DNA of 64,000 nt, from positions 2,437 through 66,436 of the IMG/VR virus record IMGVR_UViG_3300031949_000027; one strand, 5' to 3'. Under the pieces are notes generated by a model. The model did not search any database. It worked only from the letters and a program-made list of their open reading frames with translations, and was not told where the DNA came from. Of this stretch, positions 21,399 through 52,898 are shown one piece after another (the stretch's first letter is position 1; every line of letters begins with the position of its first letter). The DNA is from a virus (lineage: Duplodnaviria; Caudoviricetes). The position numbers were made by a program, and so were the translations under genes.

Positions 21399-21731
21399 AT
21401 GAAAGAACAAAGTTTAAGAGAAAAAGTTTCAGGGAAATTAAATCTTGCAGGGGATATTAAAGAAGCAAAAATTCAGACATCAATCGGAGATGTGAAAAAG
21501 GTTGATGGAAAAATATCAGCAAGATTTGAAATTTCCGGATTACCAAGCAAAAGAAAGGACGGTAGTTATTCTGACTCTTACAAAACCATTCCTAAGATAT
21601 TTGATACGATAGAAAAATTCAGCGAATATGCAACGATGTTTTTTAATGCAAGCGATGATGAAATAATAAAGATGTGTCAGGCATCTTATTTATCTAATTC
21701 CGGACCAGTAGCAAACAAAATGGCACACTAA
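21399..21731 (+). CDS. Small pre-capsid protein with SLREKVSGKLNL motif
   Basis: 110-aa ORF with AGGGA RBS. Confidence 0.75.
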   Translation: MKEQSLREKVSGKLNLAGDIKEAKIQTSIGDVKKVDGKISARFEISGLPSKRKDGSYSDSYKTIPKIFDTIEKFSEYATMFFNASDDEIIKMCQASYLSNSGPVANKMAH

Positions 21732-21733
21732 TA

Positions 21734-22177
21734 ATGGGAACATTAAATAACGAATTAACAATGTATAGGAGTGCATCTAAAATGACAAATGATGAGGAAG
21801 AAAAGAGACGGCAAAAAATAAGAAATAATGTTGCTAAGAAATTAAACTTGGGCAATAAGCCAAAAAAGGAAACACCCCCCGAATGGACGAAACAAAAACC
21901 CGGTTCGGTTGCAAATGTTAATTCATCAGATCAGGTAAGAACGTCAAAACAGATTACAGATATTGATAAGAAAAACAGACCACAGGGAGACAATACTAAG
22001 CCAATACTTACTGAAAAAACAAAAACCACTCCGAGTAATAAAACAAATGTTTTAGGCAACATTCCTTTAACCGGCAGAAAAATAGTTGGGAATGTTACTG
22101 AAATGATGAGCGAAAAAGATTTAGAAGTAAAAAATAAAAAATACAAATCACAAACAAACACAATATTAGGGAGATAG
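21734..22177 (+). CDS. Basic low-complexity protein sharing the capsid N-terminus and the KLNL motif
   Basis: MGTLNNELTMYRSA versus capsid MGTLNKDVAMYRTA; IRNNVAKKLNL. Confidence 0.75.
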   Translation: MGTLNNELTMYRSASKMTNDEEEKRRQKIRNNVAKKLNLGNKPKKETPPEWTKQKPGSVANVNSSDQVRTSKQITDIDKKNRPQGDNTKPILTEKTKTTPSNKTNVLGNIPLTGRKIVGNVTEMMSEKDLEVKNKKYKSQTNTILGR

Positions 22178-27177: not shown

Positions 27178-27180
27178 AAA

Positions 27181-27201
27181 ATTGAACAATGATTGTTCAA
27201 T
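27181..27201. promoter_or_regulatory. Perfect 10-bp inverted repeat ATTGAACAAT-G-ATTGTTCAAT
   Basis: Seen directly in the intergenic gap. Confidence 0.5.
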
Positions 27202-27333
27202 CAATATCAACACAGAATTTTCACACAGTAGAAATCAAAAGCAACACAAGATATGCAAGGATAAGAGACGGAGGACACTGGTTCAAAGTTTTTATAAAAT
27301 GTTTCATTAAATTTTGGATAAAACCAAGTTACT

Positions 27334-29838
27334 ATGGCAAAGGAAAAGCAAAACTGGAAACCGATTGACCTTATGGATGTTCTTGGTATGGCTTCTAATC
27401 CTGTTAATCCGGGAACCAAGTTTGCCAAACGATTATTGAATGTTTATACTCACGAAAAGCCGGGTGCTTTAACATTAAGACCGGGTTACGCTCCAAAATA
27501 TATCGCTCCAACACATAGCACACTTATAAGCACATCAGTAATAAACTTCGCTCCATTTTTTGATCGTCAGGCAGATCCCGAAGGAGTAGAAATAATTTGT
27601 GATATACAAAAAGGAATTGTCCAAGCATTAGAAGGATTCGGACCGGGAGGCAGAATTGTAGCAAATACAATGGAAGGATTTCAGTTTTGGGTTAGACCTT
27701 ATTGGGACGGAACTCAATGGTTGAATAATTGGCAATGGGTTAATAAAACCATCATAACCATAATTGAACAAGTAGATGCAACATTCAAAACTCACTTCAG
27801 AATCTTTGGAGATTTTCAGGTTCACGGAATAGCAACAGATTCACTTATAGGATGGACGATCTACAATGTAGATAAAGACGAGTATGCGAAAATAATAACT
27901 AATGAAGCAACAGACGTTATCGGTAATTATGGTTACAATGATATTAACATTACTGTATTCTTAAATAGTTGGGAGGTTGATGATGTAATAATAATGTCAA
28001 GAAATTGGATTGATATTGACACTCAGCTTGAATTCTTTAATAACATAGAAAAGGAAGATATTGTATTTCACAGAATAAATAATGATTTAAGAATAGGATT
28101 CGGAGGTAGAGAAAATAGACCGGGCTTGATGGTAGGTTATAGAAAAAACTTTTACAAAACATCAGAACTCGATTTTTCAAATTTTCACCCTGCTCTATTG
28201 TTGCCTGATGTTATAGAAAAATTCTCAAAAACCGATGGAGTTATTGTTGAGAACGCAGTGATAAGCGAACAGGCAAGAAATGATTATGTAATAGGAACAG
28301 AAACAGGAGTAGGCGGGACATTTGCAGCAGGGACTTATAATATAAAAATGACCGTATTGCTTGATAACTATGCAGAGCAATTAGTGGCAGAAAAGAGCGT
28401 AACGATAGGCGATGATTACGATATAAGATTATATGCCTTAGTAAAATTAGGCAGAGAAAGTTTACGTTCAATAAAATTAAAATTTTATTTGAGTCCTGTT
28501 AATGATGATCTAAATTTTTATTTGTATGGCACACAAGACTTAAAGACGATAGATGAATACACACCGGAAGAATTAAAGATCAATGATGGCGGTTATGTTG
28601 TTACGCCAGTATTCAGTCTATCAGGAAGCGGAGAATATTACAATGAAGAAGATGCACTATCAATAACAGATGAAGCAAACACAATCGGAGGATGGCAGAA
28701 TCAATCTCATCCCGATTGGGTATTTTCCTCAATTGATACTTTTACATTTGCTTGGGGAGATATAACGGCACAAAGCGGGACATATTATTTCCTCCTGAGA
28801 AACACTACTGGACTCGCAAGAAATATGAAAATCGTATCACCTTTGATAGCAACAGCGAAAAGAAAATTTACGATAGAATTTTACGCAATACCTGATTTCG
28901 CAACTACAAGCATAAGGGTATCATCAACCGGGACGAGTGAATTTATAGATATATCCATAACTACAAGTGGGAGTTGGGTGCTATGTTCAGCAGAATTAGA
29001 AATACAAGGCTCATTAGTTCTCAGCATAGATGCAGTTAATAATCCTTTAATGATAGGGATAGACAGTCTTACTATTACGCCAACAGAGTCAGTTCAGGCA
29101 GGAACAGAAATAAGTTCTGAAATGGCTTATACACCTACCTTTGATATTGTTAAGGGATGGGATCAAGCATTAGTAAAAAGAGGAAGGGTTTATTATTTGA
29201 ATCCTTATTTGGAAAAAAGATATGAAAACTTTCTTGTTGTATCTCATATAGCTCCTACAAATACTTTTATGTGGGATATAGCATCATTCAGTAACTTCCG
29301 GGAACTCGAGAATAATGACAGCAATACAACAATAGCGATAGAACTTTTACAGAATGATGAGATTTTAATTTTGAAAGATTCATCAGTAACTACTCTTATT
29401 GATGATGGACTTGTAGGAATAATGAGACAGCCGATTTACGGAGTTGATTTAGTTTCAAGAGTATCAATTGTAAACATAAACGGATTAGTATTCTGGTGTG
29501 GGAAAGAGGAAATTTATTTAGTTAATATTGGGAGTTCTTTAATCCCGAAACCACTATTAAAAGATACGATCAGAGACCTATACTTAGCGATTGAAGATAA
29601 GACAAAAATATTTGGGACAAGAAATAGATTTAATACTTTCAGAATCAGGATAAACGATTCAGAACAAAAGACAGAATATTTATTAACAGAGAACGGATGG
29701 GTTGAGGAGAGGAAATGGCATTTCCCTGAAATTTATAGAAGCGGATTTAATAATCTTCTTTATTTTTTGAGTAACGGAATTATCTATGAAGAAAACGTTG
29801 ATTTTTCATTAACCGAAGTTCCCTATGGAGAACCATAA
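27334..29838 (+). CDS. Tail nozzle/stabilisation protein (P22 gp10 or T7 gp12-like, putative)
   Basis: 834 aa, beta-rich, follows the adaptor genes. Confidence 0.55.
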   Translation: MAKEKQNWKPIDLMDVLGMASNPVNPGTKFAKRLLNVYTHEKPGALTLRPGYAPKYIAPTHSTLISTSVINFAPFFDRQADPEGVEIICDIQKGIVQALEGFGPGGRIVANTMEGFQFWVRPYWDGTQWLNNWQWVNKTIITIIEQVDATFKTHFRIFGDFQVHGIATDSLIGWTIYNVDKDEYAKIITNEATDVIGNYGYNDINITVFLNSWEVDDVIIMSRNWIDIDTQLEFFNNIEKEDIVFHRINNDLRIGFGGRENRPGLMVGYRKNFYKTSELDFSNFHPALLLPDVIEKFSKTDGVIVENAVISEQARNDYVIGTETGVGGTFAAGTYNIKMTVLLDNYAEQLVAEKSVTIGDDYDIRLYALVKLGRESLRSIKLKFYLSPVNDDLNFYLYGTQDLKTIDEYTPEELKINDGGYVVTPVFSLSGSGEYYNEEDALSITDEANTIGGWQNQSHPDWVFSSIDTFTFAWGDITAQSGTYYFLLRNTTGLARNMKIVSPLIATAKRKFTIEFYAIPDFATTSIRVSSTGTSEFIDISITTSGSWVLCSAELEIQGSLVLSIDAVNNPLMIGIDSLTITPTESVQAGTEISSEMAYTPTFDIVKGWDQALVKRGRVYYLNPYLEKRYENFLVVSHIAPTNTFMWDIASFSNFRELENNDSNTTIAIELLQNDEILILKDSSVTTLIDDGLVGIMRQPIYGVDLVSRVSIVNINGLVFWCGKEEIYLVNIGSSLIPKPLLKDTIRDLYLAIEDKTKIFGTRNRFNTFRIRINDSEQKTEYLLTENGWVEERKWHFPEIYRSGFNNLLYFLSNGIIYEENVDFSLTEVPYGEP

Positions 29839-30780
29839 ATGACAGATGCCGGACACGGGATACAAATAGATATTCAGAGTGCAGTAATATCAGTATTTGA
29901 ACAATCAAACGCAGCGATTAGGTATAATCTCGGTTACATTTCAGGTGAATTTAATGAAAATATTACATCAGAAAATTTATATGTAAGGATATGGTTCCAG
30001 CGAGGAATCAATTTAGAATGGGAGAACATTCAATTCACGTTAAATGCCGGAAGAAAATCATTCAGGCAAAAACTTCCTGCCGGGCTGACGGTAGCAGCAT
30101 TTTACGCACAGCTTTACGGATGGATAGTCCCGGAAGAAAACAAACCGGATCTGATAGAATTTGAACTAATTGATTTTGAATTATCAATAAAAGAAATACA
30201 GATTGGTAAATACGGAGGCGAGCCATTAGGACTTGCCACAGGAGAAGAACCACCACCACCACCACCGGTTGAAGAATTTTTAATGTATATTGATATTATA
30301 GGAGAAGTAGAGGCTTCAAGTGCAAGAGCGGTATGGTTTACTACACACGAAGCAACAACAAGAGTTATTTATGGGTTGTCGCCAGTAGCAATGACTAACG
30401 AGGTTGAAGATTTAACATTTACGCAATTTCACTCGATCATATTGACTGATCTGGAAGTCAATAGACTTTATTATGCTCAGTTCTTCTCAATAAGTAAAAT
30501 AACAGGAGAGGAAATAAATAGCGATGTTAAGTCATTCTTTACCGGACCGGAATTAACGATAACTAATTTCCTTGATAATCCAGATGTTGATTTTGGAATA
30601 AAAGCAAAAAATGAGTTAGAAATAGCAAACATATTGGGAGAAGCAGATTATTTGCTAACAACTGAACCAGAGGGCGAAGGAGAAATTATTTTTGTAGGTG
30701 GAGATTTCAGCACTCATACAAAAATAGAACTTGCAGTAACAAACATAATCGGGAATGATTTTGACACAATAGTTTCATAA
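29839..30780 (+). CDS. Virion protein with fibronectin-III-like domain
   Basis: ARAVWFTTHEATTRVIYG...HSIILTDLEVNRLYYAQ. Confidence 0.55.
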   Translation: MTDAGHGIQIDIQSAVISVFEQSNAAIRYNLGYISGEFNENITSENLYVRIWFQRGINLEWENIQFTLNAGRKSFRQKLPAGLTVAAFYAQLYGWIVPEENKPDLIEFELIDFELSIKEIQIGKYGGEPLGLATGEEPPPPPPVEEFLMYIDIIGEVEASSARAVWFTTHEATTRVIYGLSPVAMTNEVEDLTFTQFHSIILTDLEVNRLYYAQFFSISKITGEEINSDVKSFFTGPELTITNFLDNPDVDFGIKAKNELEIANILGEADYLLTTEPEGEGEIIFVGGDFSTHTKIELAVTNIIGNDFDTIVS

Positions 30781-38960: not shown

Positions 38961-41900
38961 ATGGCTAAACAACCTTTTGAAGATTTAACAACGATTGCAG
39001 ATAAGATACAGAATAAATACAATCTCGAATGGAAGGGGAAAACCACAACTCAAACCGATGATCTCACCGAGATAGCAGATCGTTTAGACCAAAAATTAAA
39101 AAAACAAACCGAAGAATATGTTGGCATAACCGAGCCAGAATACGGCGAAGACTATGGAGTCCCGGAAGGATTTATTGACTATGATTCTCTTGGAGCGACA
39201 AGAGAGGAACGTCTCAAGAAAAGCAAAGAACAATTAGGAGTTAAAGAATCTATCGGTAGCCAATTTCCCGGACAGATCCCATTTGCAATAGAAACTCCTG
39301 AAACATCAACCGCTAATGTATTTGAATCACTATTACAGCCAGAAACAACCGTAGCGGAATCAACTCTTTCTACATTAAAACCAATTCAAAAAGAAGACGT
39401 TTTAACTATTGATGAAATTAAAAAACAGGAACGTCAGGAAGAAGGGACACGCAGGTTAATTAAATCTTTGCAGGATTATGAAAAAGGGACAAGTGTTTTC
39501 GGAACGCCAAACGCTATTCAGTTAGCGATTGAACACGAAAAGAAGATAAAAGAAAACCCATACTCAATGACAAGCGAAGAAGCTGAGCAATATTACGCAC
39601 AGAATCAGCATTTATTAAAAGACCTGACAAATACTTCGAGACGAATGTTAAAAGACATTCCAGTAATAGGGCAAATAACAAATACACTTCTTTATCATGT
39701 AAATCCAGAAGGATTCAGATATGCGGTAGCAGATGAATTAAGACAAAACAAATCGGCAGTAAATAAATATGCTGATTACGCAGCAGAATTTGCTGGGAGC
39801 CTTGCAGGGCTATTCTCGATAGGAGGAGGAATCCATCAAGGAGTAAATACAATCAAAGCGATTGAAACCCTTGCTAAAACAAATCCAAAGATAGCGAAAG
39901 CCATTTCAGCCTTTATTTCGGGGACGACTTATGGAGGATTGGGCGAAGCTGAAAAACTGGCATCAGGATTAGTTACGCCGGAAGGAGCGATAGCCAATAG
40001 TCTTGCATCAGGATTGGTATGGACAGCATTTACACAGGTTGGCACAAAAGATTGGTTAAAACTTCAAAAGAAGATCACACCAACAGTAGTCCCCGAAGGT
40101 CAGTCATTACAAGGATTTATTCCTAAATGGAAAACCGTATTAAACGGACAGAAGGTTAATGTAGGTTATGTTAAAGACAAAGGATTTTTATCAACACAAA
40201 TTGGTAATTGGTTAATAGATACAGGGATAGTAACGGCGGTAGGGACGGTATCTCATAAAGTTGCAAGAGCAGTTGATGATTCTGAAAGAAACGATACACC
40301 ACTGGTTAAGGAATTACAAAAACAATTTACAGAAATAGACCTTACACAGACTGGAATTGAATTTGCCATAAATGCAATTTTCACAGGCTCGATACCAAAA
40401 CAATATGGTAAAATGCCTCCACCGTCAATTAAAGAATCAAAAATATTTGAACAAAAATTACTTCCCGGTGAAAGGAAAGTTGATGAAACAGTAAGACAAT
40501 CAATGAAGCCGATTTCGCCATTCGCACCAACTGATATTAAAAAACCTTTTGTAACACCAACGACAGTTCCTCCGCCGGTTAAAACTCCCGAAGAAAAAAT
40601 TCAGGATATTGAATTAACACCCGAACCACCAGTAACAGAACTGCAAGCGGGAATGACGATAGAAGAAGAAACTCCTATCCTTGAAAACATTGTAAATAAA
40701 GTCGTAAATGGTGAAACTTTATCCGAGCAGGAAACACAGCTTCAAAGCAAATATCCGAACTACATTAAAACTAAAGTCAGAAGTATTCAGGAATCTCCGG
40801 AATTCAAACAGGCACAGTCCGAGTTACGTCAGCAGGAAAAACAGAAAGCCAAACTTGATACCGATAACTATGTGGAGCTGAGCAGACAATTCAAGAACGC
40901 ACAGCGAAAGAGAAACATTTACGATGTTGAAGTATTGAGAGAAGGTATTGCGGATATTACCTCTCCAGAAATAAAAACCAAAGCAGAAACATTATTAGTT
41001 GAGGCAGAAAAGCACAACCAAAATCTGACAGAGAGAAATAAATTTACCCTTGAGAATTTAAGCCGGAAGAAATACGGCACAATGGATCTCAGAAGCCTAA
41101 CCGAAGAACGGCAGCAAGGTTTGTTGAACGAATACAATGCAATGAAGAAACAAGGAATCACAGAGTTCAAGCAAATCCAAACTATTAAGCCAATAATTAA
41201 AAAAGGAGTAACAGATGCCATACAAGAGCGAAGCCCAGAGGAAATACTTCAACGTGAACCGGAAGAAACTGGAATCACAGGGGGTGAACGTGGAGGAATT
41301 CAACCAAGCATCAAAGGGGAAAAGCCTACCGAAAAAGGTAAGCAAGAAGAAATCACCGAAGCGGAAAAAGAAGGTTTCCTTACGAGACCGGGTAAGGAAG
41401 AAACTCAACCTGTAACGGAAATTCCCGCCGATACTAAAAGAAAAGAAAGCAAAGTATTTTATCGAGGCGGAGGCGAAGGCTCGATGCCGAGAGGGAAAAC
41501 AGCCCAAGACGTTATTAACTATGAAACCAAAGAATTAGGCAACAATATTCAGATTGAACCTAATATTAAATTAGGTGAAATACCATCAGAGAAATTAGTT
41601 TGGCTTACAGAAGAAGAAAAAGACGCTATCGAATATGGTGATGTTGACGAGATAGAACTTGAGGGAGAATATAGAATTATTGCAAGAGATCAGGACGGAG
41701 GGATATTAGTTGAGAAGAATTATAGGGAAATAGAACCCGAACCAACAGAAGCTCAGAAGGAAGCCGGGAATTACAAAAAAGGACACATTAAGAGAGACGA
41801 ACTTGATATATCAATAGAAAATCTGAAAGGTTCAACGCGGTCCGGCACAGACAAATCCGGGAAGAAATGGGAAATTGAATTACAGAATGATTACGGTTAT

Positions 41901-44900
41901 ATCAAAGGAACCTTGGGAAAAGATAAAGATCATCTTGACGTATTCTTATCAGAAGATTATCAGGAAGACTCACCAGTATTCATAGTCAACCAAACAACCC
42001 CTGAAGGTAAATTCGATGAACATAAAGTAATGCTCGGATTTACAAATATTGAAGATGCTGAACAATCTTATGTTTCTAATTACGAAGAAGGTAAAGCAAA
42101 CTATTCAGATGTAGTTGAAATGAGTATGGATGAGTTTAAGGAATGGAGTAAAGATCAGGAATTAATTAAGAAACCGGCTAAACAGAAAGAAAAATATCCT
42201 GATAATGCTTTTGCTGTCAAATTAAAATCAGGTAAAATTATTGCTGATGCTGATGCGAAAAATCATACTGAAATAGTTGAAAAGAATAATATCAATGAAG
42301 ATGATGTTATTGATATAGGTTTTATTAAAGACAACGAATTCTTAACCACAAAAGAATACACAGATAAAGTAAAAAGTGAGATTCAGCAACCCTCGAATAA
42401 TCTTGCTGCAATCAAGCGGATGATTGATGAGGGGAAATCATTAAAACAAATTTCGGATGCCCTAAATATTTCTTATGAAGAAGCAAGAAAAATAAGCGAT
42501 GAAATTTTATCGAAAAGAAAGCCGATAGAAGAAGTTGAGGAAACGAATATCGCCACAGATGCAAAAGGCTACCCAATAGTAACCGATAATTATGGCTATG
42601 ACCATACAATAAAACTTTGGGGAACACACATAGTCAGGACAAGTCCGGTTAAAGAAGAAGTAACAGAGAGCGGAATAAAGACAAGTAATTTTACGTTAGG
42701 CGGTTTGGGATGGGAATGGTGGGGATTCAAAAAGCAGGGAGATATTTGGGAAGGTTATGTAGAGGGATTTGAAAACGAATTTGGAAGTTTCTCTGAAAGC
42801 GAATTAAAAGAAAACGGAGTTAAGATTGTTACAGACCCAAAAGAATTACAAGAACTTAATCCTCCAATAGAGTGGAAGTGGAAACAGAAGAAAGCAACGG
42901 CAGAGAAAAAACCGACTAAGGCTCCGGAGCCACGACCAAAAATTGAAACAAAACCTGTAAAGCCAAAAGACACAGGAATTATTGACAAGGATATGACCGA
43001 CCTGATTAACGGTCTATTGGCAGATGATACAGCTCTCCAATTAAAGAAACCACAGCAGCCGGGATACAAAAAGGATATTGGACCGAAGGCTGTTACCGGG
43101 AAGAAACCAATTTTCAGAAGTGCAGCGATAAAATATGAAGGTAAAGTTTATGAGGGGATCAATCATTGGGACGCAACAGATAAAGCCGGGATAAGAATTG
43201 AAGATGAAGTAATACCATTTGAAGATTACGGATTTGTAACAAACGAAGGAAAATTTGTATCAACAATAGAAGCGGAAAAATTAGTAGGTGAGGTAGGCGT
43301 TTCTTCGGAAGATGCAATCACTAATAAATATCTTAAAAAACCTACCGCTAAAGAAATAGAAAAAGTTGAGAAAAAAGCAGGAAAATATTACAAACCTTTA
43401 TTTCAATTAAAACCCGGTGAAAGGATATCACCAGAGAAACAGTTAAAGGCAATCCAACTTGTAGAAAAATTCATTGGTAAAGAAGTTTACGAATTTAATA
43501 ATATGGTTTTCGCAGTAGAACAGGCATTTGGAAGAGAGACGATAGAGAAACTATTACCTGCACTAAAAGCAGGATATACGGCATATCTGAGTAATGTTTC
43601 TAATGAAGTGTATGACAAGATGGATAAACCCGATTATGTAAGGAAATTCACACTTGATAAGCCGGAGGGAAAAGTCCCAATAGAGGGCAGACCTGCACTT
43701 CATACAGAAGTTAGACAGCTTCTAATTGATGTGAATAAAATGACACCCGCACAGGCTGATTATAAGCTCAAGGGGACTGATATTAAAACTCTTGAGATAT
43801 GGAAGAAAGAACTTACAGAAAGAGCGGAAGCTAAAGGAGAGACAGGAATATCGAGACCTTTCATCCAGAGAGTAAGAGAAGAAATTCGAGCCGGAAATGT
43901 TTTAACCAAAACTCAACTTGAAAATATTGCTAAAGAATTTGATATTACAGATCCCAACGTAGCGAAGGAACAGGCTGAACTTGCTATTGTTGCCGAAGCA
44001 AGAAAGATTATCAGCGAAACTAAGGACGAGAAAGAGGCTTACGATAAGGTTGTCCAGATGTATCAGAATCAGCCTAATCTTACTCACAGGACAAATATAT
44101 CAGTAGAGAATCAGCAATATTCAACTCCGGCTCCTATATCTTATGTAGCAGGATTATATGTAGCAGACGGAGTTGGGAACGGTGATGTATTAGAACCATC
44201 AGCCGGAAACGGTATGCTCGTTATTGCATTTAACACAGGTCAAGTTTATGTAAATGAAATTGATGAAATAAGAAATGCTAATTTAAGACAGACCGGATAT
44301 GAGGGTATTGCGAATATTGATGCAGAGAAGCACGATAATATTTTTGGTAAAAAGTTTGATGGAATAATAACCAACCCTCCTTTTGGTAGTGCAGAGACAA
44401 AGAAGTTTAATGATTATAAGTTAGTAAAACTTGAACACATCATGGCAGCCAACGCACTCAAGCAAATGCAAAAAGACGGAAGGGCAGCGATAATAATTGG
44501 AGGACATAACAGATACGACAATAAAGGAAGATTACAGAACGACAGAACCTTCTTTAATTGGCTGAACCATCATTACAATGTAGATGCAGTATTAAATATT
44601 AGCGGTGATCTTTACAAGAAACAGGGGACACAATCCCCGATAAGGCTAATTTTAATCAACGGAAGAAAAGAAATACCACAAGGAGCAGCACCCTTATTTG
44701 ATGCACAGAAGGATGCAGAGATAAAAGATTTTGAAGATTTGTATAACAGAATAAAGGAGATCAGAAATGAAACTCTATTACGATCAGAACCTAATGCCGA
44801 GCGAGGACTTGGCGGAACTTCTGATGTGCGAAGTCCCGGCAGAAAAGATATTCAAAAACCCGGAAGAACTGAAACCATACCTGAGAAAGAGATTAGCAGA

Positions 44901-47900
44901 CCTGATACGGAAAAGCCCTCAGAACTTACAGAAGTTGGAGACACTGGTTTACGACCTTCTGGAACAGGAGAACCCATATCTGGAAAGCCCGGAAGAACTG
45001 GCAGACCTGATATTGGAAAGCCCACATTACCGGGAAGTGCTTCAGAACAAGGAAAAGGAAAAACCGGAAGTATTGACACAGGAAGAAGCGGAAAAGATAT
45101 TCAACGAGGCTTCAATAGAGAACCTGCTTCAGTTACTCCACGCACAATTTTAGAGGTAGATAAACCCTTCCTACCATACAAAGCAGAATCAGGAGGAGTT
45201 TCGCTTGATACAGTCATACCTCGAAATATGTCTTATGAAACATCTAAGCAACTTAAAATACTTACGGAAGACGTTGGCGGAGATATAGATCAATATGTAG
45301 TAGATAAACTTGAATACAAAGACAAGGAAGAACTTTACAGCCATCTTGGAGCGGAACAGATTGACGCAGTAGCTCTTGCCATTGTCGCAATAGAAAAGAA
45401 TCAAGGTATGATTATTGGCGATATGACCGGAGTAGGAAAAGGAAGAATAGCAGCATCGGTTATAAGGTATGCAGTTAATAATGGTTTCAAGCCAATTTTC
45501 TTTACAGAGAAAGCAGATTTGTTTTCTGATTTTTACAGAGACTTAGTAGATACCGGAAACAAAGAATTAAATCCATTCATAGTAAATAGCCCAAGTTCTA
45601 AGAATTCACCGGATATTGTTGATGAAGATGGCAACGTAATTCACAAAGCGTATGCAGGTGATAAAAAGAATGAAGCATTAAGGACCGGGGATATAGGAGG
45701 ACACGATTTTGTATTATGCACTTATTACCAAGTAAACAGTGAGAAACGAGGATTAAAGAGAAACTTTGTTTCAGATTTGGCAGAGGGAAATATTGTAGTA
45801 TTAGATGAAAGTCATAATGCAAGTGGAGACTCAAACACAGGAATATTTTTTAGTGGAATCGTCCAGAAAGCAAAGGGAGTAACATATCTCTCAGCTACAT
45901 TTGCAAAGAGACCGGACAATATGCCTATCTATGCAGTTAAGACAGCGATAAGCGAAGCCAATCTTACAGAATCTCAACTTGTAGAAGCGATTGAAAAAGG
46001 CGGGGTAGCACTACAAGAAATAGTTTCAACCGATATGGTAGAAGCCGGTCAGATGATTAGAAGGGAAAAAAGTTATGAAGGAATAAAAATTGGTTATAAG
46101 CCTTTGGTTGAAAAGAAATCCGAGCATACCATAATAGTAGATAATGTTACTGGAATAATCAGAGATATTATAGACTTCCAAAGTGAATACATTAAGCCTA
46201 TTGTTGATGGGATGGACACAGAAGCAGCACAAGATGGAGAAAGAGTTGCTATTGAAGGCGGAACAAATATGGCAGGAGTTGATAATACTCCATTTGCATC
46301 AAAAGTATTTAATGTTATTGACCAATTACTCTTTTCATTAAAAGCAGATTCCGCAGCCGATGAAGCAATACAAGCTATAAAGAAAGGACAAAAACCTGTT
46401 ATCGCAGTAAAGAATACTATGGAATCTTTTCTCGATTATCTTGGAGCAGAGGAAGGAGAAATTATAGAGAATACTGATTTCAGCACAATCCTTGAAAGAG
46501 GATTAAAAGGATTATTCAGAATTAGGAGAAGGGACGCAACCGGAGAAGGAGTCGCCGATGAATTATCAATGAATGATTTATCACCAGAAGGTAGAGCAGA
46601 ATACAAAAGAATTCTTGATAAGATAAATACAACATCAGTTGGAATAACAATTTCACCGATAGACCATATTATTTATAGATTAAATAAAGCAGGATATAAA
46701 GTTGGCGAGATAACAGGAAGAGATATAAGGCTTAAATTCAGAGACGATGGAAAAGCGATTATTGAAAACCGGACGGAAAAAGATAAAAAGAAAATCTTAC
46801 GAGAGTATAATAATTGGGGAAATCCCGGACAGCCAAGAGGAGTAGAAGGCGATAAAGATATTATATTGATAATAAACTCCTCCGGCTCCACAGGAAGGTC
46901 AGCACATTCATCTCCAAAGTTCAAAGATCAGCGTCAAAGAATGATGGTTACGGTTCAGATTGAACTTAACATCAATACAGAGATTCAGAAGCGAGGAAGG
47001 ATAAACAGAACAGGTCAAGTCAACAAACCAGAATATGTTACTTTATCAAGTGCTATCCCGGCAGAACAAAGATTATTGATGATGGCAAAGAAGAAATTAA
47101 AATCCCTTGATGCGAATGTATCATCAGATCAGAGTCAGGCAGGGACAACATTCGAGGCGAATGATTTTCTAAATAAATATGGCGATAGAGTAGTAATAGA
47201 ATATTTGAAAGAGAACCGGGAACTGAATGATATGCTTTTAGATCCGCTAAGAATGAACGCAATGAATGAAGAAGAACTCGAAAAATTTGTTACAAAAGAA
47301 GATGCAGCACATAAAGTAACAGGCAGAGTCGCAATACTGCCGACACAATTACAGGAAGAATTTTATAAAGAGATCGGACACAGATACGATGATTTTATTG
47401 AATATAAAGATTCGATTGGAGAAAACGACCTTGAAGTAAAAGTAATGCCTCTGGAAGCTCTTACAACGAATAGCAGGATGCTTGTAGCTGGTAAAGGAGG
47501 TGTAAGCCCATTCGGTAAAGATTCAATGTTAGAAACAGCAGAAATAAACGTATTGAAAAAACCACATCGAATGGAAAAGATCAATGAGTTTCTTGAAAAA
47601 TATCTTGAAGGCAAGGGGAAGGAAGAAAAGAAAAAAGAACTCATTGCAGATCAAAAAATATTTTGGAAAGGATGGGTTGAAACTCACGTTGACCGGAAAA
47701 AAGAAGTCATTGCTAAAGATTTGAAAATTAGTAAGGAAGATTTGAATAAACACCTTGCCGGAGGATTATCTGTTCAAGATATGATGAAAATATATCCTCA
47801 ATTAGTAGGTAAGGAAGTATTTATAGAAATGGAATTTTCTAAATATGCTGACCTCGTTAACAGATTTTTAGTTCAAGAGGATTTCATAATCAATAATATC

Positions 47901-50900
47901 TTTGGTAGATATGAAATAGGTAGCGTCTATAAATTACCATTAGTAAGAGATAATGTTTCTCCAACTTATTCAAATGCTATATTCTTAGGTTGGGATGTAA
48001 ATCCAAAGAGAAAAAACCCTTATGCTCCAAGTGCTATCAAATTAAAATTTGCAGTTGCAGATAGCAGACAGATAGTCCCAATTCCTGCATCACAAAGAGA
48101 TTGGTTAAATGACATAACGAGTGAAAGTTATAGTTTAAGTCAATGGCAGAAGAACGACATACTTTCTGATTGGGATAATGCTCTCCCGGATAACAGAAGG
48201 GAATTAAAAAATATTGTTACCGGGAATATACTTCAAGCGGTTGGCGACGTGAAGGGTGGGCAGTTAATTTCATACACCACAAAAGATGGAGGAATAAAAC
48301 GAGGAATACTGATTAAAGATAATAGAGCGATCAGCAGTGATGAAATTAGAGTCCCGATTAAGAGAGCAAGGAAATTCATACAGCAAATAGATATGGGAGA
48401 TTTCATCGAAAGTGTTGGCGGTGAAATAACTCTTATAAACGAGAGAGATAGAACATGGTCAATCGAAGTCCCGGCAAGTAAAGCAAAGGGAGGAAAGTAT
48501 TACCTTGATGAAGGAATAAAGAAACTCGTTAAGAATGGCAGGTTCGATAAATGGGGTAATACTATGAAAGCAGAACTGTCAAAAACAAACCTTGATGCTA
48601 TGATTGATTTGCTACAAGATGATTTTGGAATATCGGTTAGACTTTCTCAAGAACAAATAAAAAGAATCGGTGATGATAATTTACAACTAAGACCGGGAAA
48701 GATTTATAAAGATAGTTTTGGTAACGATGTTCCGGTTCAATATTCAAAAGCACACGAATTCACAGAAGATAATTATTATCTTAAAAAAGGGATTGTTGAT
48801 TTTGAAATTATACCTCCACAAAATGTATATTGGACGAGGGAACATATTAAATCTTACGATTATTCAGATGATTTTATTAAAACACTGCCTAAATTAAAAA
48901 AAGGAGATTTTGGTTATGAAGAAGGAAAAGAAAAATTCGCTGTCCAAATTGGAGGAGCCAAAACATTTGACTCTGAAACCGGCAGATGGAGAATCTCTAT
49001 CAGTAGCACAGCAACTCCGTCAGCATACTCCGAAGAAATCATCCACTACTTACAAGAAGTCATTGGAGAAGTTTCGCCAGAAATGGCACGGAGAATTAAC
49101 GAATGGGAATCAGACCTAAAAGAAGTTGCTAAAGCAGGAGGGATAAGCATACCGGAAGGGTATGAAACTTTTGCACAGGCGATGGTATTCACACATCTTG
49201 GATATGCTGAGGAGAATCCAGATGTAGCAGAACTGTTTGAAGTGCCAAAAGATATTCGGGATTGGTTCACTAACGAGATCCTCAACAAATCTATTTCCGG
49301 CAAAGCAAACATATCTGATTTATTAAAAGGAGAATCACAGAGAGAAGCGATCAGACTACCATCCGGTAAAATTGACAATTCATTACAAAACTTCCGGCAG
49401 AAAAGACAGGGAATGGCGATACCTTCTGAACTAATACCGATTGAAGATAAGCGGATTAAAAAGGGTCAGGAAGTATATGCTCAGTTAAAATCACAGTTCG
49501 GACCGTTAGCAGATGTTTATCCGCAGTGGCACAGGACTATGAGGCAGGAATATGGCAAAGAATTTGAAAGAGAATCGAGAAAAGTATGGAATGAAATGAA
49601 AGGGATTTTACATCAATTAAAACCTGCACCAAAAGAACTCATCGAGAAAGTTGAGTCCAAAGGATTGGTTATTGATAAAAATTCTATTGCTACCTATAAG
49701 ATTAAAGGCGAGCCAAAAGAGTATGTTGGAATAAGCACACCAGATAAAGCAGTTTCAAGAATATTCGAGCTAAGTAAACTTGATGAAGGATTAAAAACAT
49801 TCCCACCAACATCTCTACAATTAAAGAAGCCAAAGGACTTTAAGAAACCAATGAAGGACCGCGAAGAAAGATTCTTTGGAAAGAAAACAGAAACAGAGAT
49901 AGCGAGAGAACAGGGAAGGGAACCCGAGAGCGGAGAGGGCAACGTAGTTGATTTTGGAGCAGGATTAGGCAACGTCTTCACTGCAACAGCAGACAAGATA
50001 AACGAATTTGTCCGTAACAATAAACTTGAAAAAGAATTCGGCATCGAGAGCGACCCAAAGTTAAAGAAATTGTATAGAGAACTTCTTACAGCTCCCCAAT
50101 GGTTTTTCGATAAAGAACCTCAACTGAAAAGAGTTTGGGATATTATTGATAGGCATTTCGTAAGAAACGTAAACGAAGAAACAGCGATACTCCGGGAGGA
50201 TAAATGGAAAAACAGTAAGACTTGGAGAAAACTAACTGACATCGAACATAAAGAATTTTTATCAGCACTTGAAGAATACGAACAGACTCAATATGAATTG
50301 CAGAGAGACGGAGACGATCTTGAACTACTCGATTGGGCTGATTATGCAGATGAGTTTGCATTGACTCCAAAAGTAACAGAATTCTTATTCACTACATATA
50401 AGCCTACAATTGAGACAGCACTTGACATGGTGAAAGATGTTGACCGATACAAGATCATAAACGAGACCGAACACAATCCATATTTACAGAATTATTATGA
50501 AGCCAAAGGAACTAATGTAAAACAGCAACGATTAGATAATGAATTAGATAAAGCTAAAACAGAATTCTTTGATGATGATCCTAATTCGGAAGCCTTATAT
50601 GAAAATGAACTTGCAAATATGGTAAGGAACAAAAAACCAGTAGATGAAGTAAAGGCACTCGAATTAGTTTGGAAAAATAATCCTAACCTAAGAGAGACAT
50701 TAGCAGAAGTATTGATTGATAAGAAATATGAACGGATAGACGGCAAAGCATATTTCCCATCATCCAGACTTGATAAGAAATATTATCTAAGCGGATTTAA
50801 GAAAACGACATCAGAAGAAAAACTTCTTCAAGGAAAATTTGACGATAGATTTTTTACAACAAACGAGAATCTATCTACATTAGAAAAAATTAAAACTCAA

Positions 50901-52898
50901 CTTGAAACTCAGGGATATAATGTAAAGGTAGGAAAGTTCGCTGATGCACAGGAAGAAATATTACAAAATGCTGTTACTCAGGAAGACATACTCGATCTCG
51001 CATTATCAGCAGGAATAGAACAGGACAATCCGACACTTGAAAGACTTGTTAAAACAATTCAGGCAAAAGGTTTCAGCAGACATTTTATTCCAAAGAGATT
51101 CATTCCGGGATTTGGATATAACACCAAGAACTTTGAAGAAGCTATTTTCAAGTATATCGGTTCTGTTCCCTTCTATAAGAATAGAACGATTGGCAGTAAA
51201 GAACTCGGTAAAACAATGGGTCAGCTAAAACATCAGGGGGTATTGAAGCCCGGTTCAACAAACGACAGATACGTTCAGGATCTCAAAAATAAGATTGAGA
51301 ACAGAGACGTAAAATTATCACAAGCATTAAGAGCGGTAGCATCAACATACTACCTTGCATTATCACCCGCATATTTATCACAGCAGATAGTTCAGCCATT
51401 AAATACACTTCTGCCATTGCTGCCGATAACAGCAAAAGAACTCGGATTGAATAAGATAGAAGCAGAGAAAGCATTTGGAGAGGCATTATATTCATCACTT
51501 GGATATTGGGCTTGGAAAGTTTTTGATAAAATAAATAGAATGACAGGCAGACCTACTAATCAAACATTCGGATTAGATCCTTCATTCTTAACAATGATGC
51601 GATCACTTGAAAGACAGGGAGTAGGAAAGCCATTACGTTCTCTTGAACTCGTAGGACATCAGGTTGACCCGAAAAAGCATTATGCCGATGATGCAGTATC
51701 AAAAGCAGGAGGCTCAATATCTTGGATAGCTAAGATCGCAGGTATGCCCGGCATTATGGTTGAGGATTTTACAAGAACAATAGGTATAAGAGCATTATAT
51801 ACGTTAGGTAAGAAAGCAGGATTAAGAGGAGATAAACTTGAAGACTTTATTTCAACTAATATTGCAAAGAGTTACGGACCGGCTTCAGGAAGATTAGCGA
51901 AACCTCCGGGATATTACATAGCGGGAGAGGGAAGAACAAAACCAGTAAAGGAATTAGCACAGTCAGTAATTGAATCATGGCTAACATTTAAGAACTTTGC
52001 TTTTATGAATTACGGACAATGGGGAAAAACTTGGAGAGTATTGAAAGAAGATAATATGTTCAGACCGATGGCTTACAAGTTAGGATCTCAAATTGGGTTA
52101 GCAGGATTAAAGTATATGATGTGGACTTCATCAATATTAACACTGTTAAGCGGACTCTATGCTTTATTGAATGTTACTGAAGACCCGGAAGAACAATACG
52201 AAGAATTGTTTTTACATTTCAATAAACTGGTTCCGGGATTAGGTGATGCACTATATCGAGGAATAGCATCAATAACTTTCAAGGTTGATCTATCCGCTCT
52301 GTTTGCACAGACAGCACCAATAGAAGAACCATTTACAAAAGATGTAATTCAACTTATTGGCGGAGCTCCTGCATCAGCAGCAAAAGATATAATTGAGGGA
52401 AGACTACCAAGAGCAGCGAGAGGATTCCAGATAGCGGGAAATTGGGAAGAAGGCGGAGTGAAATTAGGAAGCAGGAAACTTATTCCACCAGAAGAAATAA
52501 CAGAAGAAGAAAAGACAAAAAGAAAACTTGGTTATAATCCTTTGAGAATGGCAGACGTATATCAGAAAGAAAATACCCGGCAATTCAAATCGAAGCAATA
52601 CACCGACATCATCAGGAATAAAGTAGAAGATGAAATTATTCCATTGATCGAAAAGGGCAGAGGAAAAGAAGCGAGACAAATTTTCGCTAAACTTTATGAA
52701 GATATGAAAGCTGATAGTGTTTTAACAGAAGGACAAATGAAATCAATAACCGGAGTCAACGGTTTTATTTCACAGGTAGTATTAACCAGACTTAAAGACA
52801 GCGAGAGAGAAATAATTAAGAACTGGAAGAACAACGGAAAGCAAAAAATTAACAGCCGGGACAGAAGCAGATCCGGCAACAGAGATCGAACCCGATAA
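38961..52898 (+). CDS. 4645-aa large polyvalent (DarB-like) protein
   Basis: InPase-like domain (EPTEAQKEAGNYKKGH...DYGYI...DHLDVF, about 41730-42150); DUF2958-like segment; N6-A methyltransferase (VLEPSAGNG, NPPFG 44373-87); strawberry-notch SF2 helicase (GDMTGVGKG 45417-43, DESH, QKRGRINRTGQ); EEIIH degenerate zincin motif. Confidence 0.88.
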   Translation: MAKQPFEDLTTIADKIQNKYNLEWKGKTTTQTDDLTEIADRLDQKLKKQTEEYVGITEPEYGEDYGVPEGFIDYDSLGATREERLKKSKEQLGVKESIGSQFPGQIPFAIETPETSTANVFESLLQPETTVAESTLSTLKPIQKEDVLTIDEIKKQERQEEGTRRLIKSLQDYEKGTSVFGTPNAIQLAIEHEKKIKENPYSMTSEEAEQYYAQNQHLLKDLTNTSRRMLKDIPVIGQITNTLLYHVNPEGFRYAVADELRQNKSAVNKYADYAAEFAGSLAGLFSIGGGIHQGVNTIKAIETLAKTNPKIAKAISAFISGTTYGGLGEAEKLASGLVTPEGAIANSLASGLVWTAFTQVGTKDWLKLQKKITPTVVPEGQSLQGFIPKWKTVLNGQKVNVGYVKDKGFLSTQIGNWLIDTGIVTAVGTVSHKVARAVDDSERNDTPLVKELQKQFTEIDLTQTGIEFAINAIFTGSIPKQYGKMPPPSIKESKIFEQKLLPGERKVDETVRQSMKPISPFAPTDIKKPFVTPTTVPPPVKTPEEKIQDIELTPEPPVTELQAGMTIEEETPILENIVNKVVNGETLSEQETQLQSKYPNYIKTKVRSIQESPEFKQAQSELRQQEKQKAKLDTDNYVELSRQFKNAQRKRNIYDVEVLREGIADITSPEIKTKAETLLVEAEKHNQNLTERNKFTLENLSRKKYGTMDLRSLTEERQQGLLNEYNAMKKQGITEFKQIQTIKPIIKKGVTDAIQERSPEEILQREPEETGITGGERGGIQPSIKGEKPTEKGKQEEITEAEKEGFLTRPGKEETQPVTEIPADTKRKESKVFYRGGGEGSMPRGKTAQDVINYETKELGNNIQIEPNIKLGEIPSEKLVWLTEEEKDAIEYGDVDEIELEGEYRIIARDQDGGILVEKNYREIEPEPTEAQKEAGNYKKGHIKRDELDISIENLKGSTRSGTDKSGKKWEIELQNDYGYIKGTLGKDKDHLDVFLSEDYQEDSPVFIVNQTTPEGKFDEHKVMLGFTNIEDAEQSYVSNYEEGKANYSDVVEMSMDEFKEWSKDQELIKKPAKQKEKYPDNAFAVKLKSGKIIADADAKNHTEIVEKNNINEDDVIDIGFIKDNEFLTTKEYTDKVKSEIQQPSNNLAAIKRMIDEGKSLKQISDALNISYEEARKISDEILSKRKPIEEVEETNIATDAKGYPIVTDNYGYDHTIKLWGTHIVRTSPVKEEVTESGIKTSNFTLGGLGWEWWGFKKQGDIWEGYVEGFENEFGSFSESELKENGVKIVTDPKELQELNPPIEWKWKQKKATAEKKPTKAPEPRPKIETKPVKPKDTGIIDKDMTDLINGLLADDTALQLKKPQQPGYKKDIGPKAVTGKKPIFRSAAIKYEGKVYEGINHWDATDKAGIRIEDEVIPFEDYGFVTNEGKFVSTIEAEKLVGEVGVSSEDAITNKYLKKPTAKEIEKVEKKAGKYYKPLFQLKPGERISPEKQLKAIQLVEKFIGKEVYEFNNMVFAVEQAFGRETIEKLLPALKAGYTAYLSNVSNEVYDKMDKPDYVRKFTLDKPEGKVPIEGRPALHTEVRQLLIDVNKMTPAQADYKLKGTDIKTLEIWKKELTERAEAKGETGISRPFIQRVREEIRAGNVLTKTQLENIAKEFDITDPNVAKEQAELAIVAEARKIISETKDEKEAYDKVVQMYQNQPNLTHRTNISVENQQYSTPAPISYVAGLYVADGVGNGDVLEPSAGNGMLVIAFNTGQVYVNEIDEIRNANLRQTGYEGIANIDAEKHDNIFGKKFDGIITNPPFGSAETKKFNDYKLVKLEHIMAANALKQMQKDGRAAIIIGGHNRYDNKGRLQNDRTFFNWLNHHYNVDAVLNISGDLYKKQGTQSPIRLILINGRKEIPQGAAPLFDAQKDAEIKDFEDLYNRIKEIRNETLLRSEPNAERGLGGTSDVRSPGRKDIQKPGRTETIPEKEISRPDTEKPSELTEVGDTGLRPSGTGEPISGKPGRTGRPDIGKPTLPGSASEQGKGKTGSIDTGRSGKDIQRGFNREPASVTPRTILEVDKPFLPYKAESGGVSLDTVIPRNMSYETSKQLKILTEDVGGDIDQYVVDKLEYKDKEELYSHLGAEQIDAVALAIVAIEKNQGMIIGDMTGVGKGRIAASVIRYAVNNGFKPIFFTEKADLFSDFYRDLVDTGNKELNPFIVNSPSSKNSPDIVDEDGNVIHKAYAGDKKNEALRTGDIGGHDFVLCTYYQVNSEKRGLKRNFVSDLAEGNIVVLDESHNASGDSNTGIFFSGIVQKAKGVTYLSATFAKRPDNMPIYAVKTAISEANLTESQLVEAIEKGGVALQEIVSTDMVEAGQMIRREKSYEGIKIGYKPLVEKKSEHTIIVDNVTGIIRDIIDFQSEYIKPIVDGMDTEAAQDGERVAIEGGTNMAGVDNTPFASKVFNVIDQLLFSLKADSAADEAIQAIKKGQKPVIAVKNTMESFLDYLGAEEGEIIENTDFSTILERGLKGLFRIRRRDATGEGVADELSMNDLSPEGRAEYKRILDKINTTSVGITISPIDHIIYRLNKAGYKVGEITGRDIRLKFRDDGKAIIENRTEKDKKKILREYNNWGNPGQPRGVEGDKDIILIINSSGSTGRSAHSSPKFKDQRQRMMVTVQIELNINTEIQKRGRINRTGQVNKPEYVTLSSAIPAEQRLLMMAKKKLKSLDANVSSDQSQAGTTFEANDFLNKYGDRVVIEYLKENRELNDMLLDPLRMNAMNEEELEKFVTKEDAAHKVTGRVAILPTQLQEEFYKEIGHRYDDFIEYKDSIGENDLEVKVMPLEALTTNSRMLVAGKGGVSPFGKDSMLETAEINVLKKPHRMEKINEFLEKYLEGKGKEEKKKELIADQKIFWKGWVETHVDRKKEVIAKDLKISKEDLNKHLAGGLSVQDMMKIYPQLVGKEVFIEMEFSKYADLVNRFLVQEDFIINNIFGRYEIGSVYKLPLVRDNVSPTYSNAIFLGWDVNPKRKNPYAPSAIKLKFAVADSRQIVPIPASQRDWLNDITSESYSLSQWQKNDILSDWDNALPDNRRELKNIVTGNILQAVGDVKGGQLISYTTKDGGIKRGILIKDNRAISSDEIRVPIKRARKFIQQIDMGDFIESVGGEITLINERDRTWSIEVPASKAKGGKYYLDEGIKKLVKNGRFDKWGNTMKAELSKTNLDAMIDLLQDDFGISVRLSQEQIKRIGDDNLQLRPGKIYKDSFGNDVPVQYSKAHEFTEDNYYLKKGIVDFEIIPPQNVYWTREHIKSYDYSDDFIKTLPKLKKGDFGYEEGKEKFAVQIGGAKTFDSETGRWRISISSTATPSAYSEEIIHYLQEVIGEVSPEMARRINEWESDLKEVAKAGGISIPEGYETFAQAMVFTHLGYAEENPDVAELFEVPKDIRDWFTNEILNKSISGKANISDLLKGESQREAIRLPSGKIDNSLQNFRQKRQGMAIPSELIPIEDKRIKKGQEVYAQLKSQFGPLADVYPQWHRTMRQEYGKEFERESRKVWNEMKGILHQLKPAPKELIEKVESKGLVIDKNSIATYKIKGEPKEYVGISTPDKAVSRIFELSKLDEGLKTFPPTSLQLKKPKDFKKPMKDREERFFGKKTETEIAREQGREPESGEGNVVDFGAGLGNVFTATADKINEFVRNNKLEKEFGIESDPKLKKLYRELLTAPQWFFDKEPQLKRVWDIIDRHFVRNVNEETAILREDKWKNSKTWRKLTDIEHKEFLSALEEYEQTQYELQRDGDDLELLDWADYADEFALTPKVTEFLFTTYKPTIETALDMVKDVDRYKIINETEHNPYLQNYYEAKGTNVKQQRLDNELDKAKTEFFDDDPNSEALYENELANMVRNKKPVDEVKALELVWKNNPNLRETLAEVLIDKKYERIDGKAYFPSSRLDKKYYLSGFKKTTSEEKLLQGKFDDRFFTTNENLSTLEKIKTQLETQGYNVKVGKFADAQEEILQNAVTQEDILDLALSAGIEQDNPTLERLVKTIQAKGFSRHFIPKRFIPGFGYNTKNFEEAIFKYIGSVPFYKNRTIGSKELGKTMGQLKHQGVLKPGSTNDRYVQDLKNKIENRDVKLSQALRAVASTYYLALSPAYLSQQIVQPLNTLLPLLPITAKELGLNKIEAEKAFGEALYSSLGYWAWKVFDKINRMTGRPTNQTFGLDPSFLTMMRSLERQGVGKPLRSLELVGHQVDPKKHYADDAVSKAGGSISWIAKIAGMPGIMVEDFTRTIGIRALYTLGKKAGLRGDKLEDFISTNIAKSYGPASGRLAKPPGYYIAGEGRTKPVKELAQSVIESWLTFKNFAFMNYGQWGKTWRVLKEDNMFRPMAYKLGSQIGLAGLKYMMWTSSILTLLSGLYALLNVTEDPEEQYEELFLHFNKLVPGLGDALYRGIASITFKVDLSALFAQTAPIEEPFTKDVIQLIGGAPASAAKDIIEGRLPRAARGFQIAGNWEEGGVKLGSRKLIPPEEITEEEKTKRKLGYNPLRMADVYQKENTRQFKSKQYTDIIRNKVEDEIIPLIEKGRGKEARQIFAKLYEDMKADSVLTEGQMKSITGVNGFISQVVLTRLKDSEREIIKNWKNNGKQKINSRDRSRSGNRDRTR
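41215..41415 (+). CDS. Nested gene 1 (+1 frame of the giant gene): 66-aa basic protein
   Basis: AAGGAG 41203-08, 6 nt before ATG; ends SLRDRVRKKLNL, matching two other phage proteins. Confidence 0.7.
   Translation: MPYKSEAQRKYFNVNRKKLESQGVNVEEFNQASKGKSLPKKVSKKKSPKRKKKVSLRDRVRKKLNL
44767..45153 (+). CDS. Nested gene 2 (+1 frame): 128-aa acidic helical protein
   Basis: AAGGAG 44754-59, 7 nt before ATG; amphipathic L/E pattern; the host frame here is a G/R/P/S-rich linker. Confidence 0.6.
   Translation: MKLYYDQNLMPSEDLAELLMCEVPAEKIFKNPEELKPYLRKRLADLIRKSPQNLQKLETLVYDLLEQENPYLESPEELADLILESPHYREVLQNKEKEKPEVLTQEEAEKIFNEASIENLLQLLHAQF

Follow-up and report, generated by a model that had tools for sequence, protein, structure and literature searches.

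The stretch of DNA analyzed here, referred to below as the window, comprises 64,000 nucleotides (nt) of IMG/VR virus record IMGVR_UViG_3300031949_000027 (positions 2,437 to 66,436). The record, 66,436 bases long and rated as complete, comes from an uncultured phage in a soil metagenome. It carries a giant gene for a polyvalent protein of 4645 amino acids (aa), and a small open reading frame (ORF), called n1, lies wholly within that gene, one base out of its frame. The giant gene is a called gene, and its exact protein is present in a public collection. Pfam searches of its product found InPase at aa 930-1064 (E=2e-48), a small methyltransferase domain at approximately aa 1770-1855 (MTS and UPF0020 matches slightly below their cut-offs), and a helicase of the strawberry-notch (Sno)/SNF2 type at aa 2130-2826 (Helicase_C_4, 5e-26; AAA_34, 1e-18; ResIII, 2e-7). 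The giant ORF therefore joins several unrelated conflict or effector domains in one phage polypeptide, as is characteristic of polyvalent proteins. According to Iyer et al. (2017, PMC5512222), InPase occurs specifically in polyvalent proteins of the phage type, which are probably packaged in virions, and the stretches between domains are taken for linkers or sites of processing. The window's giant protein is presumably packaged in the virion.

The n1 product begins MPYKSEAQRKYF. An earlier note on this DNA, made from the letters, had described a +1-frame ORF with AAGGAG 6 nt upstream and a low-complexity linker in the host frame over the same span, and both were found (Table 1). The giant gene reads the n1 span as KGVTDAIQERSPEE..., in which E, G, R, and Q abound. 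n1 has the complete form of an embedded gene, with start and stop codons of its own inside a longer ORF on the same strand and in another frame. A 66-aa ORF in an alternative frame is by itself unremarkable in the giant gene because the gene is purine-rich and has four + strand ORFs of at least 60 aa in other frames, including n1. The comparisons with other genomes described below make it very probable that n1, its function left aside, is a real, independently translated gene that was captured when the giant ORF came to read through it.

Table 1. Coordinates of n1, further nested candidates, scan flags, and related features in the window (G001 is the closest relative of the window's phage).
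Feature	Positions	Strand	Remarks
n1	41215..41415	+	ATG to TAA, 66 aa, isoelectric point (pI) 10.8, frame +1 of giant gene; TAA in nested frame just 5' of ATG
Shine-Dalgarno-like AAGGAG of n1	41203..41208	+	exactly 6 nt 5' of nested ATG; kept in G001
Conserved domain of n1	41215..41340	+	aa 1-42; motifs MPYKSxAQxxYF, GVxVxEW(N/D), SKGKxLPxK
Lysine-rich variable tail of n1	41341..41412	+	holds two G-AAA-AAG runs
C-terminal motif of n1, SLRDRVRKKLNL	41377..41412	+	predicted helix, aa 56-63
n2 (second nested gene)	44767..45153	+	128 aa, acidic, pI 4.6, frame +1; host linker between methyltransferase and helicase
AAGGAG of n2	44754..44759	+	7 nt before ATG; kept in G001
n3 (weak candidate)	48916..49119	+	67 aa, frame +1; AAGGAG at 48901-48906, 9-nt spacing
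Giant host gene	38961..52898	+	4645-aa polyvalent protein; called gene
Blind-scan flag	41172-41678		n1
Blind-scan flag	42270-42515		saturated, poorly aligned stretch
Blind-scan flag	44718-45167		n2
Blind-scan flag	48864-49013		n3
Blind-scan flag	49389-49514		marginal window
Matching motif, SLREKVSGKLNL	21411..21446	+	near N-terminus of 110-aa gene 21399-21731, head module 5' of major capsid gene
Matching motif, KIRNNVAKKLNL	21815..21850	+	within 147-aa gene 21734-22177, same head module
Weaker motif copy, TIADKIQNKYNL	38991..39026	+	residues 11-22 of giant protein; kept in G001

A scan of IMG/VR with n1 found 113 relatives. Eighty of these were retained, and the locus counts given below cover these 80 loci and the window. 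The retained relatives are 49-91% identical to n1 (mostly 55-83%) over about the first 33-57 residues. A protein index of 5.8 billion clusters contained 81 small called relatives (41-103 aa), all without a recorded Pfam domain; in the few cases with a name, it is "hypothetical protein". The profile built from these small relatives, alignment A1, matched 1903 clusters (50% identity) at E<=1e-3 and 564 at E<=1e-10 among 1.84 billion representatives. The 150 best matches have E values from 3e-26 to about 3e-19, and in most of them the domain occupies residues 1-53, including in proteins of 150-1000 aa.

n1 has all four positions that are invariant in A1 (P2, S5, Q8, and V26) as well as every position conserved to at least 90% (M1, Y3, K4, F12, E28, S33, K34, G35, L38, and P39). 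Its first ~45 residues contain the family motifs MPYKSxAQxx(Y/F)F, GVxVxEW(N/D), and SKGKxLPxK, with the domain at the extreme N-terminus and a basic tail rich in K and R behind it. AlphaFold2, run on A1, modeled the family domain as three short helices and an extended basic tail (mean predicted local distance difference test score 88). No significant match to n1 was found in Pfam or PHROGs, and tblastn of n1 and P0023 against 50,697 GenBank phage records returned nothing beyond one match at E=0.4. The family of n1 is thus a very large, unnamed one from uncultured phages, with a ~42-residue three-helix domain and a lysine-rich tail. The earlier note had said that the MP(Y/F)KS(E/K)AQR start resembles small stand-alone phage proteins and had proposed a homology search with the 66-aa product. 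That search recovered stand-alone homologs in abundance.

The family gene takes three forms at the 81 loci. It stands alone at 38 of them, as a gene of 45-67 codons with its other frames closed. At nine loci the domain is fused, forming the in-frame N-terminus of a protein of 99-451 aa, and the profile search added many fused proteins of up to about 1000 aa. The remaining 34 loci have the nested form: a complete gene is surrounded by an ORF of 269 to more than 2000 codons and is read in another frame, invariably one base downstream of that of the host. Each of the 34 nested copies has its own start and stop codons, and a nested-frame stop lies 1-20 codons 5' of the start. An intact +1 frame in relatives had been named in the earlier note as a test of the gene; it is intact in G001, the closest relative, and in 32 further viral loci.

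Long open frames are expected in T-poor DNA, and the giant gene has three other + strand ORFs of at least 60 aa, so n1 could be a chance ORF in a purine-rich, T-poor linker. Alternatively, the arrangement could be a frameshift artifact of assembly. However, chance does not explain 1903 homologous clusters or stand-alone homologs whose other frames are closed. Nor does an artifact explain the same arrangement at 33 other IMG/VR loci, each on a separate contig, or a separate 66,433-base ENA contig with a near-identical giant protein in the same 90% cluster. We consider an origin by chance or artifact exceedingly improbable.

The position of the nested gene within its host varies widely. It starts at codon 751 of 4645 in the window, at 717 of 4655 in G001, at 512 of 1666 in G005, at 1535 of 2528 in G002, at 2572 of 3561 in G003, and at 1573 of 2546 in G004. 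In L028, L043, and L064, it starts merely 44-49 codons into the host. A tblastn search with the window's giant protein against all loci found full-length similarity only in the close relative G001 (locus L046). Twenty of the 32 other nested loci also matched, mostly just at residues about 748-830, which is the overlap itself. When host flanks of up to about 1000 codons were compared, they fell into nine upstream and five downstream groups without cross-similarity. By these comparisons, the nested copies occupy at least five host contexts with unrelated flanks. One host, the 3561-aa protein of L112 (G003, 19424-30109), is a very different giant from the one in the window, with BspA-type leucine-rich repeats (LRR_5, 2e-44) and no other Pfam domain. 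No nested copy was found within 3 kb upstream in other InPase-bearing relatives of the window's giant gene.

Aligned as DNA, 12 nested loci taken from different groups are conserved from the invariant ATG to the LPKKV codons, and upstream of the ATG they have only an A-rich patch in common. Every nested locus begins with M. Such a sharply bounded island of nucleotide conservation between otherwise unrelated genes could reflect an RNA or DNA element inside the giant gene and not a protein. Against this, variability repeats every three bases in phase with the nested ORF, the island begins exactly at the ATG, and the stand-alone genes encode the same protein with different codons. Therefore, we give almost no weight to a nucleic acid element.

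Codon-position statistics were used to examine selection on the two frames, a check that the earlier note had also suggested. Between pairs of 21 distinct nested sequences, differences average 0.206, 0.132, and 0.370 at positions 1, 2, and 3 of the nested codons, as expected for purifying selection on the nested frame. Host codon positions were compared in the three host groups whose flanks can be aligned, with the overlap taken as the conserved domain. Differences at host position 3 are 0.41 and 0.43 in the two flanks and 0.082 in the overlap for group A, 0.48 and 0.60 in the flanks and 0.041 in the overlap for group B, and 0.54 and 0.38 in the flanks and 0.083 in the overlap for group C (the window and L046). 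Host position 1 in the overlap, which is nested position 3, differs by 0.25, 0.17, and 0.25 in the three groups, respectively. Host position 3 is thus the most variable position in the flanks and among the least variable in the overlap, where host position 1 varies most.

A blind scan with a 40-codon sliding window was conducted over all 4645 codons of the giant gene compared with G001. Overall differences at positions 1, 2, and 3 were 0.21, 0.16, and 0.45. Five places were flagged (Table 1), of which n1 and n2 are clear phase inversions. Phase scans of G004 against G002 and of G003 against G002 gave the n1 segments as their clearest flags, along with some weaker or divergent stretches.

These data also bear on the possibility that the nested ORF is a recently swallowed, unexpressed relic, conserved only through the needs of the host frame. 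An open host frame does constrain the sequence to some degree. However, the host-frame product is of low complexity, the nested start and stop are kept at all 34 loci, and in three lineages with strongly diverged or unrelated flanks it is host position 3 that varies among the least and nested position 3 that varies most. A relic is therefore very unlikely.

The host frame has left its own mark on the codons of the nested genes. A T at the end of a nested codon creates a host-frame stop wherever AA, AG, or GA follows, and such contexts are frequent in n1 because K, N, E, D, R, and S make up much of the protein. In stand-alone copies, T occurs in 108 of 502 potential stop contexts. The absence of T from these contexts in nested copies is true by definition, and the independent observation is the overall depletion of third-position T, which makes up 4-27% in stand-alone copies and 0-4% in nested ones. 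The values are 1.5% for n1, 9.4% for n2, and 27.4% genome-wide. When synonymous codons for n1 were drawn according to the genome's own usage, the proportion of 20,000 trials without a host-frame stop was 1e-4; in the same simulation for n2 there were no such trials. The T depletion, the rarity of stop-free simulations, and the codon-phase pattern together indicate that both frames are maintained. Judged from these sequence statistics, purifying selection acts on the nested frame, and selection keeps the host frame open.

Internal initiation at the nested ATG would presumably provide for the translation of n1. The AAGGAG hexamer is kept in G001 for both n1 and n2, and in the window as a whole about half of the genes have a Shine-Dalgarno-like site and 10 of 70 have a strong 6-mer. 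Exact look-ups in a collection of 15 billion proteins found neither n1 and n2 nor the nested copies of G001, G003, and G004. The giant protein and the products of genes 21399 and 21734 from the same contig are present in that collection. The earlier note's expectation that n1 would be invisible to standard annotation thus held: n1 is missing where its host is listed.

The family domain is often the N-terminal module of large proteins, which raises the possibility that the n1 domain is joined to the host polypeptide by programmed frameshifting and is not a free protein. In the likelier version, translation would start at the nested ATG and a -1 slip in the G-AAA-AAG tail would place the MPYKS module before ~3800 downstream residues. 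The n1 tail has two such runs in the nested frame, and in L028, L043, and L064, where the gene lies 44-49 codons in, one slip would mimic the fused architecture. Nevertheless, tails with lysine A-runs are found equally in stand-alone copies and so are not specific to nesting, and the heptamers are imperfect, starting with G in place of A. No nested copy has lost its own stop, and the fused-form proteins have no homology to the hosts. Entry by a +1 shift from the host frame is unlikely, as many loci have a nested-frame stop 1-2 codons 5' of the ATG and no conserved slippery codon there. The search for a conserved slippery site or stimulator was by inspection. Overall, a frameshift product is improbable compared to an independently translated n1, although it is the least improbable of the alternatives considered here.

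The earlier note had left it open whether n1 was overprinted or captured. Capture is the part that stands, and overprinting in the sense of de novo origin does not, since the family is wider than the hosts and the hosts share only the overlap. The small gene is taken to be ancestral and the host linker derived because no host comes near the family in breadth and homologs of the host-frame reading are confined to the overlap. We propose that the small gene would be the older one and that a long ORF came to read straight through it, in the other frame, in several lineages. The read-through product would then serve as the disordered, E/G/R/Q-rich linker between host domains. n1 would retain its own start codon, ribosome-binding region, and stop codon, and its amino acids would stay conserved while its synonymous codons became restricted, with almost no third-position T, sparing the host frame from stops.

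L028, L043, and L064 may be intermediates between the free and the deeply nested state. The site in question is at about 2850-3180 of these contigs; the host ORFs are 269 to at least 1083 aa long, and two of these loci stop at the contig edge. The downstream host region of G005 (locus L011), where the nested gene starts at codon 512, is homologous to those of L028 and L064; the upstream extension therefore varies around one junction. No similarity was found between the upstream part of the group A hosts and the separate upstream ORFs of L028, L043, and L064, or between the flanks of the stand-alone copies L074 and L075 and the group B hosts. A search of the fused-form proteins against the host giants found no homology.

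n1 does not seem to be the only nested gene in the giant ORF. AAGGAG occurs 11 times in the giant gene, and three of these precede, by 6-9 nt, the ATG of a +1-frame ORF of at least 66 aa, at 41215 (n1), 44767 (n2), and 48916 (n3). The n2 product is 70% identical to its counterpart in G001, compared to 55% for the host frame over the same bases. A homolog, P0251 (47% identity, 93% coverage), is encoded on the 556-base contig L113, and it is regarded as stand-alone because the other two frames are full of stops. Nested position 3 of n2 is the most variable in both comparisons, at 0.34 versus 0.19 and 0.15 for positions 1 and 2 with G001 and at 0.71 versus 0.35 and 0.30 with L113. The pattern scan of IMG/VR found no relatives of n2, and there was no Pfam match. 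From these comparisons n2 is regarded as a real second nested gene. n3 was flagged by the codon-phase scan, and it is a weak candidate only: the host frame is the better conserved one in the comparison with G001 (54.5% versus 49% for the nested frame), and a search for homologs found none.

Genes embedded out of frame are classical in phages. Rz1 lies within Rz in the lambda spanins, and in phiX174, B and K lie in A/C and E lies in D. In these cases, the embedded gene is generally held to be the younger, overprinted one, and the host gene is of normal size. Nesting as such is therefore of a known kind, and n1 resembles these genes in that it is complete, with a start, a ribosome-binding site, and a stop of its own, and shares its strand but not its frame with the host. 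It differs from them in that its family is old, has 1903 clusters, and also occurs free and fused, the new reading is the host linker, and the same type of gene is embedded in unrelated hosts. Also, nothing ties n1 functionally to lysis. The window's giant protein, with InPase, a methyltransferase, and a Sno/SNF2-type helicase in one phage polypeptide, is like the polyvalent proteins described previously (PMC5512222), except that two of its inter-domain stretches are out-of-frame shadows of small genes. The words "overlapping" and "frameshift" do not appear in the text of that paper. Literature searches on embedded genes in polyvalent proteins and on the Pfam family DUF3008 gave no report of such an arrangement.

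What is new here is the direction, in which an old and widespread gene is swallowed by a giant ORF, and the recurrence of the same embedded gene in unrelated hosts. It is also new that the read-through serves as a linker, that a single giant ORF holds two or more such genes, and that the family and its nested members lack annotation. For annotation, the finding matters because gene callers exclude genes that lie within other genes, so such genes go missing; a codon-phase scan combined with a search for embedded homologs of free small genes would recover them at scale. For evolution, it would turn classical overprinting around and would show concretely how giant multidomain genes of phages are put together and where their linkers come from. 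It also draws attention to a very common, uncharacterized small basic protein of environmental phages that is found beside packaged cargo proteins.

Whether the route is general is more speculative. Giant polyvalent-type ORFs might grow by engulfing adjacent small genes, so that many of their low-complexity linkers would be shadows of living genes; we offer this as a tentative idea and think it somewhat doubtful. An upstream ORF would lose its stop and read through the small gene, out of frame, into the next gene. The engulfed gene would stay active from its own start, and the read-through would become a disordered linker. If so, small phage genes are systematically under-counted, and the nested position may govern how much of the small head proteins is made, or when, relative to the packaged giant.

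The gene neighborhoods give some indication of what the family does. Stand-alone copies lie between TerL and portal (L012), directly after portal (L044), before TerL (L076), after a virion structural protein (L081), and after TerL (L117 and L118). In L114 and L115 (1-6165), the copy follows genes for a ~1500-aa ddrB-ParB protein, a ferritin/Dps-like protein, and a ~1000-aa protein, a block of cargo genes like those joined into one ORF elsewhere. The fused forms have long low-complexity stretches, glycine zippers, and repeated AK-x-AA motifs, and some have NUDIX or a C-terminal DUF6321. The fused proteins include P0089, P0094, P0097, P0110, P0130, P0135, and P0090, and of 20 tested, three end in DUF6321 and one has NUDIX. 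In its usual forms, the family is found either as a gene of its own in the module for head, packaging, or cargo or as the leading module of a larger glycine-zipper protein.

It is possible, though we would stop short of calling it probable, that the n1 product is a small basic head-associated phage protein, made late together with the packaged giant, and perhaps associated with DNA by way of its lysine tail or serving as a head-targeting module. A protein of this type could be supplied by a free gene, by release from the N-terminus of a cargo protein, or by a nested gene. DNA binding is suggested solely by charge (pI 10.8) and by weak Lsr2-like matches. Four of 82 family members had sub-threshold matches to Lsr2_DNA-bd (PF23359; best E=0.0086), and n1 is like Lsr2/H-NS proteins in having a short helical domain and, behind it, a basic S-K-G-K-x-L-P loop, comparable to the S-x-R-G-R-I-P minor-groove hook. 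Membership in this domain family was rejected because n1 itself, the solved Lsr2/H-NS structures, and the fold gave no match. MatP, the only match in a profile search of PDB sequences (E=0.73), was rejected.

DUF3008 (PF11450) was considered as well. We take it to comprise small phage and bacterial proteins with a similar MPxKSxAQ start and a ...KGxLP... end, and it has no known function. A DUF3008 cluster is the nearest named neighbor of n1 in a protein atlas (score 0.82), which is a lead only, and one BFVD match at E=9 bears that name. The DUF3008 hidden Markov model (HMM; gathering threshold 24 bits) matched neither n1 at E<=10 nor any of 82 members at E<=1, and the candidate was rejected. 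Nor did the HMM match any of the six frames of G000, G001, G002, G004, and G005 at E<=10.

Several observations weigh against the interpretation of n1 as a captured gene for a head-associated protein. With regard to function, it is drawn from gene neighborhood and composition only, and the stand-alone copy in L116 lies among small genes without a recognizable head context. Foldseek searches against PDB and VIA-align wide gave no match, a BFVD fold search found only uncharacterized small proteins, and none of the fold or family searches pointed to a mechanism. With regard to initiation, several nested lineages have no obvious Shine-Dalgarno site, only an A-rich leader. Lastly, the tree of the 46-column domain is poorly resolved. 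Its well-supported branches force at least two state changes, and because of the poor resolution, one ancient capture is indistinguishable from several.

The earlier note had also connected n1 to the genes at 21399 and 21734 through a 12-residue motif at its C-terminus (Table 1). A six-frame search of the window ranked SLREKVSGKLNL first (8 of 12 identical, BLOSUM score 37) and KIRNNVAKKLNL second (7 of 12, score 35), with the next best match at 28. Among 300 shuffled queries, the mean score was 27.4 and the maximum 36; none reached 37, and 0.7% reached 35. The pattern [KRN][VI]xxK[LY]NL, which was chosen post hoc, occurs four times in the window versus 0.11 expected. The DNA differs among the three sites (n1, 21411, and 21815). 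The motif match is therefore statistically real here and exists at the protein level with different codons. However, in G001 it is kept only in the giant protein and the 21399 homolog; the nested tail there reads SLKKKVMKKLGY, without the motif, and the 21734 homolog has lost it too. A search of four other genomes for a motif that co-varies between the nested C-terminus and the N-termini of other proteins found none. The motif may mark head-targeted proteins or be a protease-site signal, and it carries no weight for n1 because it is not conserved enough, being lost at two of four sites in G001.

The window has a phage context, with portal at 10222-12399 and a major head protein at 23599-24897. 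No close cultured relative of the portal was found, and blastn of the n1 region returned nothing useful. In the giant gene, the flagged stretch at 42270-42515 differs from G001 to near saturation, with differences of ~0.5 at each codon position and 70% at the amino acid level. This stretch is a hypervariable or non-homologous insert between conserved domains of the giant protein.

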